Below are positions 3,125 through 5,875 of a stretch of DNA of 64,000 nt, piece after piece. Source of the stretch: Escherichia phage ime09. Where the stretch lies: sequence record NC_019503.1; one strand, given 5' to 3'. The position numbers and the translations under genes are program-made. The notes below the pieces were generated by a model, which was not told where the DNA came from, did not search any database, and saw only the letters and a program-made list of their open reading frames with translations. Every line of letters begins with the position of its first letter. Within the stretch, counting starts at the first letter, position 1.

Positions 3125-3688
3125 TTATTTATCTAGTTTAGTTATTATAGCTTCTGCGGCAGCTTTTAGCTTAGATGCGGTGTTAATACGATTTTTAATT
3201 TCAGTATAAGCGTCGCCAAGAACATCAAGGCTATCAGAATAAACACTTACACTATTGCGTTCGCTATTTGAAATAGAACCTTTAGTTTTACGATCAAAAT
3301 CGGTGTACACGTCTTGAAGATCACGGGCTGCCTTCTTTGCATCATCCAATGCATCAAGAGCTTTATTCAAAGCATTAACGTATTTTTTAGTGTCGAACAT
3401 ATTCTTAGAAATTTTAACAGGTGCGCGTTCAGGAGTAGCTAACACAGATTTAGGAACCTGAGCGCCAGATGCCAATTTCTTAGAAATTTTGAAAAATGCT
3501 TTGTTGAATTTATTTTCTTGACTCATTGTAAAAGAACTATTATCGATGTTGTACATTTCAATAGCTTTAGCTTTCCACTTAAGAAAATCGCCGCGGTCTT
3601 TTGGGTCCAAGTGGAAAAATACTTTAGTAAGATCTGCTTCAGATGGTAATTTTGCTGCTTCGGTTAAAAATTCGGCATAGGTTTTCAT
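3125..3688 (-). CDS. internal head protein-like (IP family, capsid targeting sequence-like N-terminus)
   Basis: 187 aa; N-terminus MKTYAEFLTEA matches the MKxYxEFxxEA motif of T4 internal proteins; preceded by terminator hairpin of gene above. Confidence 0.6.
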   Translation of the reverse strand: MKTYAEFLTEAAKLPSEADLTKVFFHLDPKDRGDFLKWKAKAIEMYNIDNSSFTMSQENKFNKAFFKISKKLASGAQVPKSVLATPERAPVKISKNMFDTKKYVNALNKALDALDDAKKAARDLQDVYTDFDRKTKGSISNSERNSVSVYSDSLDVLGDAYTEIKNRINTASKLKAAAEAIITKLDK

Positions 3689-3813: not shown

Positions 3814-4287
3814 TTATTTGATTTGTTTAGCAGACCAAATGCGGTCTTTAATAATTTTTTGGATGTCTTCAACATACTCAAGAGAGTGAACATGTGGGTT
3901 ATCTTTGAAACTATAAGCACGGGCTAACTTTTGGCCTTCGGTTTTGATTACTAAAAGCTCTTTAAGGATAGCTTCATATTTAGCGATAATTCCTTTAACG
4001 ATATTTTTTTCTTGTGCAGCTTTAGGATCTGCTTTAGGAGCAGGTTTACCCGAAGCCTTTGCAAAAGCAGCGCCAGTAGCAACTAAACTTTTCCAGGCCA
4101 TACTAACTGCATTTCCCGTAAATCCTTCTGCTTTCATGTCGCGAGCAAATTGGAATCGTGATTCGTCAGAAGCATCTTTATAGGAATATTTACCCGCTGC
4201 AATGGCTGCTTTTGCGACAGCTTGAATTTCGGTGCTAGATGCTTCATTTAACACCGCTTCATTTAAAAATTGAGCATATGATTTCAT
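3814..4287 (-). CDS. internal head protein-like (IP family)
   Basis: 157 aa; N-terminus MKSYAQFLNEA has the same capsid-targeting-like motif; Ala/Lys-rich. Confidence 0.6.
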   Translation of the reverse strand: MKSYAQFLNEAVLNEASSTEIQAVAKAAIAAGKYSYKDASDESRFQFARDMKAEGFTGNAVSMAWKSLVATGAAFAKASGKPAPKADPKAAQEKNIVKGIIAKYEAILKELLVIKTEGQKLARAYSFKDNPHVHSLEYVEDIQKIIKDRIWSAKQIK

Positions 4288-4337
4288 CTTATTTCCTGTT
4301 TTAATTCGTGGATTTAATATACTACTATATTTATACT

Positions 4338-4365
4338 AAAAAGCCCCAACCTTTCGGTCGGGGCT
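4338..4365 (-). terminator. intrinsic terminator-like hairpin plus U-tract (end of tRNA / stable RNA transcript)
   Basis: Near-identical copy of the 3779-3806 hairpin (one loop substitution), followed by UUUUU. Confidence 0.6.
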
Positions 4366-4379
4366 AAGCCTTGCGGCAA

Positions 4380-4676
4380 CCTTGTCGGGGTTCCACCTGC
4401 TAAGGCAAGTGTTTGTACGAAACGCCGGGATTCGAACCCGGTTATTAAGCAGTTGACGCTACTCAATATTTTTAAAAGGCCATATCTCGACCATATCCGA
4501 ACGTTCCGTCAAAAACGCTACTCGGCTTACGGCAAAGATATTTCCTCGAATCGATAATTCTGTGCGCCGTTTCTGCTGTGATGTAAGGGGACATTAACAG
4601 ATCGTAAAGATTTGTTAATGCCAGTCCTTACCCAGGGAACATCAGTCCGACGACTTACCGGTAGCGACCCGGTTTC
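4380..4676 (-). ncRNA. structured stable-RNA region with a tRNA-like T-arm, possibly the counterpart of T4 species 1/2 (RNA C/D)
   Basis: No credible ORF; contains CCGGGTTCGAATCCCGG T-arm-like element on minus strand and several hairpins; ends at a hairpin plus U-tract terminator (4338-4365). Confidence 0.35.
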
Positions 4677-5027
4677 TTAATATTCTTTTAAAGCATCAAT
4701 CTGTTCACGGCGTTTACGCCATAAATCAATTACTTCATACGCAGATTCAGCATTTCGAATTGGACGGCATTTATATAAAGACTTGTGATTTTGATATTGC
4801 GTAGATAACGGAATTTTATCTAAAAGGTCTTTACGTTCAAAGTATTCGTAACCATCTAAGCCAAATGAACGATTTTTGAGAAATTGCCAATGACCATATT
4901 CGTTTTCGACATAAACATAATCCGCGTGTTGATAAAGCAAATTAATTACACGTTCAGAAATAACAGTGTCATTGTGATTAAAATAGAATGTCAAATCATG
5001 GACTACTAAATAAACATTACCTTTCAT
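4677..5027 (-). CDS. hypothetical protein between tRNA-Arg and the stable-RNA region
   Basis: 116 aa ORF immediately 3' of tRNA-Arg on the same strand. Confidence 0.45.
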   Translation of the reverse strand: MKGNVYLVVHDLTFYFNHNDTVISERVINLLYQHADYVYVENEYGHWQFLKNRSFGLDGYEYFERKDLLDKIPLSTQYQNHKSLYKCRPIRNAESAYEVIDLWRKRREQIDALKEY

Positions 5028-5043
5028 ATTTTCCTCACTTAAT

Positions 5044-5119
5044 TGGTCGAGGCAGTAGGGATCGAACCTACGACCTAGGACTTAGAAGGTCCTTGCTCTT
5101 CCTTCTGAGCTATGCCTCG
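5044..5119 (-). tRNA. tRNA-Arg (anticodon TCT), CCA encoded
   Basis: Cloverleaf folded by hand: acceptor CGAGGCA/TGCCTCG, anticodon stem AGGAC/GTCCT, loop CTTCTAA, T-loop TTCGATC. Confidence 0.8.
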
Positions 5120-5123
5120 TATT

Positions 5124-5198
5124 TGGCGGACGTGATAGGATTCGAACCTATAACCAATCGCTTAACAGGCGATCGCTCTGCCATTGAGCTACACATCC
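5124..5198 (-). tRNA. tRNA-Asn (anticodon GTT)
   Basis: Acceptor GGATGTG/CACGTCC with one G-U pair, anticodon loop CTGTTAA, T-arm ATAGG TTCGAAT CCTAT, CCA encoded. Confidence 0.7.
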
Positions 5199-5202
5199 AA
5201 AT

Positions 5203-5289
5203 TGGTGGGGAGTGATGGAGTCGAACCACCCGAGTCGCAATGACAATGGATTTACAGTCCACACCGCTACCTCTACGGGATAACTCCCC
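5203..5289 (-). tRNA. tRNA-Tyr (anticodon GTA), class II with long variable arm
   Basis: Acceptor GGGGAGT/ACTCCCC, anticodon loop CTGTAAA, long variable arm, T-loop TTCGACT; resembles bacterial tRNA-Tyr. Confidence 0.7.
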
Positions 5290-5302
5290 TTAATTCTTAA
5301 TT

Positions 5303-5377
5303 TGGTGGCCCTGGGTGGAATTGAACCACCATCTGGCGATTATGAGTCGCTTGCTTGAACCTTCCAGCTACAGGGCC
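5303..5377 (-). tRNA. tRNA with anticodon CAT (Met, or Ile if lysidine-modified as assumed for T4 tRNA-Ile)
   Basis: Acceptor GGCCCTG/CAGGGCC, anticodon loop CTCATAA, T-arm GGTGG TTCAATT CCACC, CCA encoded. Confidence 0.65.
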
Positions 5378-5378
5378 T

Positions 5379-5454
5379 TGGTGCTGATTGACGGAATCGA
5401 ACCGCCGACCTTCTCATTACAAGTGAGTTGCTCTACCTACTGAGCTAAATCAGC
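5379..5454 (-). tRNA. tRNA-Thr (anticodon TGT)
   Basis: Acceptor GCTGATT/AATCAGC, D-stem GCTC/GAGC, anticodon loop CTTGTAA, T-arm GGCGG TTCGATT CCGTC. Confidence 0.8.
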
Positions 5455-5459
5455 AAAAC

Positions 5460-5549
5460 TGGCGGAGGCGATAGGATTTGAACCTATGAGTCGCCGGAGC
5501 GACTGCCGGTTTTCAAGACCGGTGCATTAAACCACTCTGCCACGCCTCC
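5460..5549 (-). tRNA. tRNA-Ser (anticodon TGA), class II
   Basis: Acceptor GGAGGCG/CGCCTCC, anticodon loop CTTGAAA, long variable arm, T-arm ATAGG TTCAAAT CCTAT. Confidence 0.8.
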
Positions 5550-5551
5550 AG

Positions 5552-5625
5552 TCTCCATACAAGGATTTGAACCTTGGACCTCCTGATCCCAAATCAGGCG
5601 CTCTACCAAACTGAGCTACACGGAG
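5552..5625 (-). tRNA. tRNA-Pro (anticodon TGG), CCA not encoded
   Basis: Acceptor CTCCGTG/TATGGAG, D-stem GCTC/GAGC, anticodon loop TTTGGGA, T-arm CAAGG TTCAAAT CCTTG. Confidence 0.75.
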
Positions 5626-5635
5626 TAAATTAAAT

Positions 5636-5709
<74 letters not shown>

Positions 5710-5714
5710 AAATT

Positions 5715-5801
5715 TGGTGCGAGAAGTGGGACTCGAACCCACAAGGAAATCATTCCGCAGCATTTTAAGTGCTGTGCCTTTACCAATTTGGCCATTCTCG
5801 C
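5715..5801 (-). tRNA. tRNA-Leu (anticodon TAA), class II
   Basis: Acceptor GCGAGAA/TTCTCGC, anticodon loop CTTAAAA, long variable arm, T-arm GTGGG TTCGAGT CCCAC; one nt from tRNA-Gln. Confidence 0.8.
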
Positions 5802-5802
5802 G

Positions 5803-5875
5803 CTGGGAATAAAGGACTCGAACCTTTGCATCCTGGAATCAAAATCCAGTGCCTTACCAACTTGGCTAATTCCCA
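5803..5875 (-). tRNA. tRNA-Gln (anticodon TTG), CCA not encoded
   Basis: Acceptor TGGGAAT/ATTCCCA, anticodon loop TTTTGAT, T-arm AAAGG TTCGAGT CCTTT; first gene of the array. Confidence 0.8.

Follow-up and report, generated by a model that had tools for sequence, protein, structure and literature searches.

Orthologues of the T4 small stable RNAs rnaD and rnaC beside the tRNA array of Escherichia phage ime09, and a predicted tRNA-like fold for rnaC

What is encoded at the end of the transfer RNA (tRNA) array of Escherichia phage ime09, in a stretch that holds no credible open reading frame (ORF) and is rich in hairpins? The locus lies in a 64,000-nt stretch of DNA from sequence record NC_019503.1, which was analysed as a whole and is referred to here as the window. 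On its minus strand, the window carries an array of ten tRNA genes at 5044-5875 (Gln, Leu, Gly, Pro, Ser, Thr, Met, Tyr, Asn and Arg; identified with ARAGORN and the Rfam tRNA model), followed downstream by a 116-aa ORF (4677-5027), then by the ORF-free stretch and, at 4365-4342, by an intrinsic terminator with a U tract. An earlier reading made from the letters alone (hereafter the sequence-only reading) had marked 4380-4676 as structured RNA, suggesting either the species 1 and 2 small stable RNAs of phage T4 or a degenerate or unusual tRNA-like molecule. Our analysis indicates that the region very probably carries orthologues of T4 rnaD and rnaC, both of them small, stable RNAs that encode no protein, for which we propose a maturation pathway, a structure and a function.

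A blastn search with positions 4300-4720 as the query against 50,697 phage records returned full-length matches in 805 of them, nearly all from Tequatrovirus and its close relatives, and Enterobacteria phage vB_EcoM_IME339 is 100% identical to the window here. In the records of T4T, Aplg8, Kha5h, RB10, RB27 and RB3, the matched DNA is annotated as rnaD ("small stable RNA; species 2 RNA") and rnaC ("species 1 RNA"). Since these GenBank annotations fall at aligned positions, and in view of the sequence identity, the assignment to species 1 and 2 offered by the sequence-only reading proves to be correct. Projection of the T4T features through a four-way alignment (T4T rnaD at 1797-1915 of locus L001) defines the following elements:

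4681-4337, minus strand: the whole unit of rnaD, rnaC, trailer and terminator
4681-4561, minus strand: rnaD (species 2 RNA) orthologue, 121 nt
4560-4555, minus strand: spacer GAAUUA between rnaD and rnaC, 6 nt
4554-4416, minus strand: rnaC (species 1 RNA) orthologue, 139 nt as annotated in T4
4415-4373, minus strand: conserved 3' trailer, 43 nt between rnaC and the terminator
4365-4337, minus strand: intrinsic terminator of the tRNA/rnaD/rnaC unit, with its stem at 4365-4342 (AGCCCCGACC-GAAA-GGUUGGGGCU) followed by UUUUU

The range given by the earlier reading located the right region, but it misses the first 5 nt of rnaD and ends within the trailer. At the sequence level, rnaC is identical to T4T rnaC at 137 of 139 positions (98.6%), and rnaD shows 88.8% identity to T4 rnaD; across Tequatrovirus, rnaC is at least 97% identical and rnaD ranges from 78 to 100%. 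The order of elements (tRNA array, rnaD, 6-nt spacer, rnaC, trailer, terminator) and their strand are those of T4. Two differences are apparent, however: in ime09 the 116-aa ORF separates tRNA-Arg from rnaD, whereas T4 rnaD abuts tRNA-Arg, and the apical hairpin of the ime09 rnaD carries several substitutions and indels relative to T4.

Work on T4 brought the species 1 and 2 RNAs to light as early as the 1970s, about 50 years ago; the two elements are annotated in GenBank, and finding them here is no discovery. In T4, both RNAs are contained in a tRNA precursor of about 1.75 kb that terminates after species I (PMC2330249). Both have also been detected by RNA sequencing (RNA-seq), with northern validation using an RNAC probe and none listed for RNAD, and rnaD has been classed as a late RNA from the RNA-seq data (PMC9697503).

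The properties of the DNA itself are in line with this assignment. The region, in which the sequence-only reading had noted several hairpins, folds far better than shuffled sequence, with z = -3.6 for rnaD, -4.6 for rnaC and -4.3 for trailer plus terminator. The absence of a credible ORF also holds, the only ORFs of the window list that overlap the region being of 34, 40 and 50 aa, and no frame being open across 26 rnaC homologues. The perfect T-arm-like element CCGGG-TTCGAAT-CCCGG was found exactly as that reading had described it, at 4441-4425 on the minus strand, and forms part of rnaC. In this regard, the 11-mer GGTTCGAATCC, with at most one mismatch allowed, has eight matches in the window, seven in annotated tRNAs and one in the rnaC T arm, against a mean of 0.61 for an 11-mer of this type in shuffled sequence, where none of 100 shuffles gets to eight.

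ARAGORN called neither a tRNA nor a transfer-messenger RNA (tmRNA) in 4380-4681, and the Rfam tRNA model RF00005 (gathering score 29 bits) likewise called nothing there, which accounts for the fact that no canonical cloverleaf could be drawn from the letters. At the gathering scores of Rfam 15, only the ten tRNAs pass in the whole window, with no family for rnaC or rnaD, and a search of 4250-5100 at E values up to 10 gave nothing credible, the best match being a non-significant tRNA-Sec (16.6 bits, E = 2.8). The Rfam scan that the sequence-only reading had proposed as a check thus matched no family; the covariance analysis across T4-like genomes that it had proposed in the same place revealed strong covariation.

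RNAalifold, applied to seven genera, found compensatory change in 23 of 46 rnaC pairs. In a structure-blind MAFFT alignment of 26 distinct rnaC sequences, evaluated over 54 proposed pairs, 89.9% of the cells are paired, as against 37-45% when the partners are slid by 1-3 columns, and compensatory double changes occur in 29 of the 54 pairs, a number reached by none of 500 shuffles. The loops and the junction residues of rnaC are invariant. Covariation across the 26 homologues clearly supports, for rnaC, a predicted tRNA-like four-way junction made up as follows:

4553-4547, minus strand: acceptor stem 5' strand CGAUUCG, forming 7 bp with 4424-4418 (CGUUUCG)
4546-4477, minus strand: P2, an irregular hairpin of about 70 nt in the position of the D arm, with no linker after the acceptor stem
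4512-4507, minus strand: P2 apical loop UUGACG, invariant save in Marfavirus and PM2
between P2 and P3: linker of 9 nt, A/U-rich
4468-4443, minus strand: P3, a 10-bp stem with a 6-nt loop CGUCAA (4458-4453)
4441-4425, minus strand: T arm CCGGG-UUCGAAU-CCCGG, one nt after P3
4424-4418, minus strand: acceptor stem 3' strand, followed by the discriminator U (4417) and ACA (4416-4414)

P2 and P3, the arms that have no tRNA counterpart, are the most strongly co-varying helices of rnaC, with compensatory change in 16 of the 26 P2 pairs and in nine of the ten pairs of the P3 stem. As for the tRNA-like part, at acceptor pair 3:70 ten sequences have A-U, 15 have G-C and one has G.U; acceptor pair 1:72 is C-G, replaced by A-U in PM2; and at pair 3 of the T stem 11 sequences have G-C and 13 have U-A. 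A tandem U.U at acceptor pairs 4:69 and 5:68 is kept in 25 of the 26 sequences and becomes U-A in PM2. The encoded 3' end is U-ACA here and in most clades, and U-CCA in Marfavirus and PM2. Compared with RF00005, rnaC has the 7-bp acceptor stem and the 5-bp T arm with a 7-nt UUCRANY loop, but not the cloverleaf with its D arm and anticodon loop. The alternative suggestion of an unusual tRNA-like molecule is therefore also well founded, in that rnaC combines an acceptor stem and a T arm with the absence of a D arm and an anticodon arm. We also considered whether the P3 loop might be an anticodon loop that presents GUC to a GAC "codon" within P2, and rejected this notion, as the loop has 6 nt and lacks U33.

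Homologues of rnaC can be traced through at least nine genera of T4-like phages. They were found in Mosigvirus (RB69), Gaprivervirus (VR7), Karamvirus (PG7, Pet-CM3-4), Kanagawavirus (IME523, Kosakonia 305), Gelderlandvirus (Proteus ABTNLPp2, Salmonella Melville), Mosugukvirus (PM2), Moonvirus (NM4.3) and Marfavirus (Klebsiella F48, EI, VAC36), as well as in Edwardsiella PEi20 and Citrobacter Ursula. A covariance model, R1, built from seven rnaC homologues, detects one full-length rnaC copy per genome at 87-159 bits, and has a single match in the window (156.5 bits, E = 7e-48). The same model also gives cross-matches of about 21-27 bits to real tRNAs, tRNA-Ser among them, with P3 aligned to the long variable arm. 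In PG7, Pet-CM3-4 and the Proteus phage, the rnaC gene is flanked by tRNA-Trp and tRNA-Gly with spacers of 5-8 nt; in Ursula, rnaC follows tRNA-Trp, and tRNA-Gly lies about 390 nt further on, past a coding sequence (CDS). Taken together, the tRNA slots, the CCA encoded in some clades and the tRNA cross-matches point to a tRNA-like handling of rnaC.

Several homologues are mis-annotated in public records, among them a 95-nt "tRNA-Met" in PG7 (L004, 1546-1640) and a "tRNA-Lys" in G4507 (NC_054919). In the Marfavirus loci L032-L035, rnaC is annotated as hypothetical proteins of 35-45 aa, once with a ribosome-binding site feature. Spurious "hypothetical protein" and wrong tRNA annotations over rnaC and rnaD, which many genome records carry, could be set right with a covariance model.

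The predicted fold presents two loops of particular interest. Perfect complementarity over 6 nt links the P2 loop (UUGACG) to the P3 loop (CGUCAA), the two most conserved rnaC elements outside the T arm. Across the 26 sequences, the loop-loop helix is 99.4% paired, with an A-U to G-C replacement in four Marfavirus sequences, where both loops are changed (UUGGCG/CGCCAA); PM2 retains the central GACG/CGUC. Calculated duplex energies amount to -5.5 and -7.6 kcal/mol for the natural pairs and to -0.4 kcal/mol for one mismatched combination. From this comparative evidence, we consider it probable that the P2 and P3 loops form a kissing contact. We go no further than that because the covariation corresponds to one evolutionary event and wider searches gave no second one: blastn walks from the PM2, PEi20 and Marfavirus copies produced no new clade and no second kissing-loop covariation, and the same outcome was obtained with a loop-independent pattern run on viral and metagenome contigs. 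Among the 38 metagenome pattern matches, 25 were false positives, unconfirmed by the covariance model.

How does rnaC compare with other RNAs that are tRNA-like or that kiss? As in canonical and class II tRNAs, its acceptor stem of 7 bp stacks on a T stem of 5 bp that is capped by a UUCGAAU loop, and it occupies a tRNA slot in arrays; its discriminator precedes ACA or, in some clades, CCA. The likeness to class II tRNA (tRNA-Ser) extends to P3, which stands at the position of the long variable arm, one nt before the T arm, and to the model cross-match. A canonical tRNA differs, however, in having a D arm and a 7-nt anticodon loop, both absent from rnaC, which in turn shows the tandem U.U, the 9-nt P2/P3 linker and a length of 139 nt. 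As in tmRNA, a large insert foreign to tRNA is enclosed between an acceptor stem and a T arm, and processing is tRNA-like, as we infer for rnaC; unlike tmRNA, rnaC contains no tag reading frame (ARAGORN), no G3.U70 (A-U here, G-C in most homologues) and no pseudoknot series, and it is much smaller. In mascRNA (MALAT1), which RNase P excises, and in the tRNA-like structure of turnip yellow mosaic virus, a tRNA-shaped module serves as a handle for tRNA enzymes in a non-decoding RNA; both are unrelated to rnaC in sequence, host and architecture, and the likeness is one of concept only. With regard to the loops, the TAR/TAR* and ColE1 RNA I/RNA II kissing complexes have fully paired loops of 6-7 nt, and the rnaC loops are likewise complementary over all six nt; in rnaC, however, both loops belong to one 139-nt RNA.

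Turning to the second RNA, rnaD has a narrower range than rnaC, being found by blastn only in Tequatrovirus, Mosigvirus, Gaprivervirus and Dhakavirus-type phages. In 12-13 phages, about 50 nt at its 5' end and about 25 nt at its 3' end are invariant, and the closing helices are retained with some compensatory change. The central apical hairpin, for its part, exists in three unrelated versions (T4/IME339-type, T2-type and Dhakavirus-type). rnaD is made up of a 5' hairpin and a long irregular hairpin, with an invariant core and a tip that is swapped between phage lineages:

4673-4657, minus strand: rnaD 5' hairpin ACCGG-GUCGCUA-CCGGU, in the invariant 5' block
minus strand: long-range stem GUCGUCG/CGGCG-CAC
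about 4633-4584, minus strand: hypervariable apical hairpin

In T4T, UP19 and the loci L016 and L017, rnaD starts right after the CCA of a tRNA; in ime09, the 5' end placed at the T4 position overlaps the stop codon (4679-4677) of the 116-aa ORF. A terminator-like site on the plus strand at 4657-4673 corresponds to the antisense of the rnaD 5' hairpin and of the A-rich rnaD 5' end, and this call is almost certainly an artefact of the scan.

A published adaptive change falls in the apical hairpin of rnaD. Among lines of phage BW-1 that had adapted to E. coli ECOR34, one single-nucleotide polymorphism (SNP) alone was convergent (PMC12685909), and it lies in the apical stem of rnaD, in a T2-type hairpin, at position 164264 of OR125554.1 (position 266 of L044). 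This mapping assumes that the coordinates of the paper are those of OR125554.1, an assumption backed by the plus-strand T found there and by the agreement of the 164336 boundary with a CDS end. In the RNA sense, the change is A to G, and it turns a C.A mismatch in the hairpin CACAG-UUUUA-CUAUG into a C-G pair, which is already present in T2, IME537, ELT1 and OLB35. The minimum free energy moves from -25.9 to -31.0 kcal/mol with the SNP, and the family fold returns. In PMC12685909 the orientation of the RNA was read in reverse, and the repair of the stem is not remarked upon. The structural integrity of rnaD appears to matter on some hosts. This ECOR34-adaptive change is, in addition, the only phenotype-linked mutation that we found in the literature.

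A direct pairing between rnaD and rnaC was considered as well, on account of these elements:

4522-4514 and 4466-4458, minus strand: two copies of the nonamer GAGUAGCGU with a GUAGCG core, in the P2 bulge/stem and in the P3 5' strand of rnaC
4668-4662, minus strand: invariant rnaD hairpin loop, whose CGCUAC is complementary to the GUAGCG core of GAGUAGCGU

The idea was dropped, as such a complementarity to a motif present twice in rnaC has a chance of about 5-10%. Furthermore, the rnaC sites lie partly within stems, and GUAGCG is kept in Karamvirus, where no rnaD is detectable by blastn. The match between GAGUAGCGU and the rnaD loop is probably due to chance.

Downstream of rnaC, the trailer is nearly invariant in ten loci of the Tequatro-, Mosig-, Gapriver- and Dhaka-type, being as invariant as rnaC itself. 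Its fold consists of a 7-bp hairpin and small elements, and the trailer also holds a sequence copy:

4411-4394, minus strand: 7-bp hairpin CACUUGC-CUUA-GCAGGUG
4389-4383, minus strand: CCCCGAC, a copy of the terminator stem 5' strand at 4363-4357

Through this CCCCGAC copy, the trailer could take over from the terminator's own 5' strand as the partner of its 3' strand. Possible roles of the trailer are a nuclease site, the protection of the 3' end or an alternative pairing with the terminator. The terminator is annotated as such in Aplg8 and Kha5h. In RB69 and VR7, its own 5' strand has UU instead of GA, and the terminator stem is weaker.

How would these RNAs be made, and what might they do? 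We propose that rnaD and rnaC would form the 3' end of the tRNA operon, sharing one transcript with the 116-aa ORF and the ten tRNAs, and would be cut from this polycistronic precursor by the host tRNA-maturation machinery. RNase P would generate the 5' end of rnaC, and tRNA 3' trimming enzymes would shorten its 3' end toward the discriminator, because a complete acceptor/T-arm module, of 7 + 5 bp, is what these enzymes recognise. In this regard, a minihelix of acceptor stem and T stem-loop is a known RNase P substrate (PMC11143913). P2 and P3 take the place of the D and anticodon arms, and their complementary loops most likely kiss, be it within one molecule or between two. As to function, it is a tentative and still doubtful suggestion that rnaC is a non-decoding tRNA mimic engaging a factor that recognises the acceptor/T-arm face of tRNA. 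In such a role, it might bind or titrate a host tRNA-targeting, tRNA-processing or modification enzyme without entering translation, and rnaD might act through its structured core, the integrity of which would affect growth on some hosts. A more far-reaching speculation, which we regard as rather improbable in its entirety, is that rnaC stands for an uncurated family of tRNA mimics in enterobacterial T4-like phages, excised like tRNAs from their arrays and held in a non-decoding shape by the kissing loop. Members of this family would act toward a host factor, e.g., a tRNA-targeting defence nuclease or transferase that recognises the acceptor/T-arm face of tRNA, either as decoys or as adaptors; rnaD would then be a second host-range determinant, with its integrity selected on semi-permissive hosts, as the BW-1 SNP suggests.

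A number of points weigh against these proposals. Both RNAs have been termed "of unknown function" (PMC3014915, PMC9697503, PMC12685909), and a literature search, whose range did not take in the primary papers of the 1970s-80s or Miller et al. 2003, returned no functional study of rnaC or rnaD. The mature ends of the RNAs in ime09 are taken from the T4 annotation, and the 5' end of rnaD may differ here, because the place of the tRNA next to T4 rnaD is taken by the 116-aa ORF. The putative kissing loop draws on one clean compensatory event in one clade together with the complementarity of the loops. A contact within one molecule would need a sharp bend of P2, since P2 (about 26 bp) is far longer than P3 (10 bp), and a dimer, with the contact between two rnaC molecules, is equally possible. 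The decoy idea is a proposal by inference, set against an acceptor tandem U.U unlike that of any tRNA and a 3' end of ACA, not CCA; because of these two features, the partner may be no tRNA enzyme. Finally, T4 mutants with deletions in the tRNA region that lack species 1 and 2 grow on laboratory strains, and any function would consequently be conditional.

Other explanations of the locus can be weighed against the same evidence. A decayed tRNA gene plus spacer, maybe transcribed and with no function of its own, would explain why there is no cloverleaf and why ARAGORN and the Rfam tRNA model make no call, as well as why some pipelines label parts of the homologues tRNA-Met or tRNA-Lys; the weak cross-match of the rnaC model to tRNA-Ser would fit a descent from a class II tRNA. 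We consider such a remnant very improbable, however. The identity of rnaC does not fall below 97% over hundreds of Tequatrovirus genomes, the RNA can be followed through at least nine genera, and 29 of 54 pairs show compensatory change, most of it in P2 and P3, next to invariant loops and junction: decay would not preserve helices through double changes. That the region encodes small proteins, as would be suggested by the "hypothetical protein" CDSs lying under the match in many records (e.g., one of 45 aa over rnaC in Marfavirus) and by the window ORFs of 34, 40 and 50 aa, is extremely improbable. No frame is stop-free across the 26 homologues, PM2, PG7, VR7, T4T and L013 have stops in all six rnaC frames, and the ORFs differ between clades, while the substitutions match up between helix partners and lack any codon periodicity. 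Covariation and the lack of a conserved frame thus effectively exclude both of these explanations.

Two further alternatives accept the RNAs as structured. The location at the operon 3' end, directly before the terminator, would suit a cis-acting module for processing, stability or termination, one that offers nuclease entry sites and a protective 3' structure, perhaps together with regulated termination, and leaves the stable RNAs as by-products, and so would a trailer as conserved as rnaC, with a CCCCGAC copy able to compete with the terminator 5' strand. This is quite unlikely, since Karamvirus, Gelderlandvirus and Ursula keep the rnaC fold in the middle of a tRNA array with no adjoining trailer or terminator, a co-varying loop-loop contact and an invariant junction exceed the needs of a nuclease entry site, and both RNAs accumulate as discrete species in T4 (PMC9697503). 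Also unlikely, in our judgement, is a role of one or both RNAs as base-pairing regulators of host or phage mRNAs, acting through the conserved loops or the rnaD tip and not as tRNA mimics. An exchange of the rnaD tip between lineages around a fixed core is what would be expected of a specificity module, and the SNP in this tip is the only convergent change on the new host (PMC12685909). The BW-1 SNP, however, restores an intramolecular pair and leaves a single-stranded seed unaltered, and in rnaC it is with one another that the two best-conserved loops can pair. No target mRNA came to light either, although no search aimed at one was made.

Two small stable RNAs orthologous to T4 rnaD and rnaC remain our preferred reading, to which the comparative structure of rnaC and the re-reading of the rnaD SNP are modest additions, the element itself being known. 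The wide conservation and covariation-supported fold of rnaC, its tRNA slots and the CCA of some clades, the complementary loops and the SNP make the function of rnaC and rnaD easier to test. In particular, the comparative data point to specific mutants, namely loop swaps and the disruption and repair of stems.

Some observations on the neighbouring genes complete the description of the locus. Within the array, tRNA-Tyr(GUA) (5203-5289, minus strand) is atypical, scoring 30.2 bits with the Rfam tRNA model against the gathering score of 29, whereas the other nine tRNAs reach 60-74 bits; its counterpart is annotated "tRNA-Pseudo-GTA" in Pet-CM3-4 and IME523. The 116-aa ORF (4677-5027, minus strand), located between tRNA-Arg and rnaD, belongs to phrog_3355, which has no assigned function. 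It is present in T2, ELT1, IME537 and BW-1 and absent from T4, where rnaD abuts tRNA-Arg and segB lies upstream. On the other side of the unit, two tandem paralogous ORFs on the minus strand (3125-3688 and 3814-4287; 187 and 157 aa) both fall into phrog_2280, again with no assigned function. Near-identical terminator hairpins, AGCCCCGACC-GAAA/AAAA-GGUUGGGGCU, directly precede the 157-aa ORF (4365-4342) and separate the two paralogues (3806-3783). Together, the phrog_2280 ORFs and their terminators look like a duplicated gene-plus-terminator cassette; at the position of this pair, T4 carries e.8/e.7/e.6.

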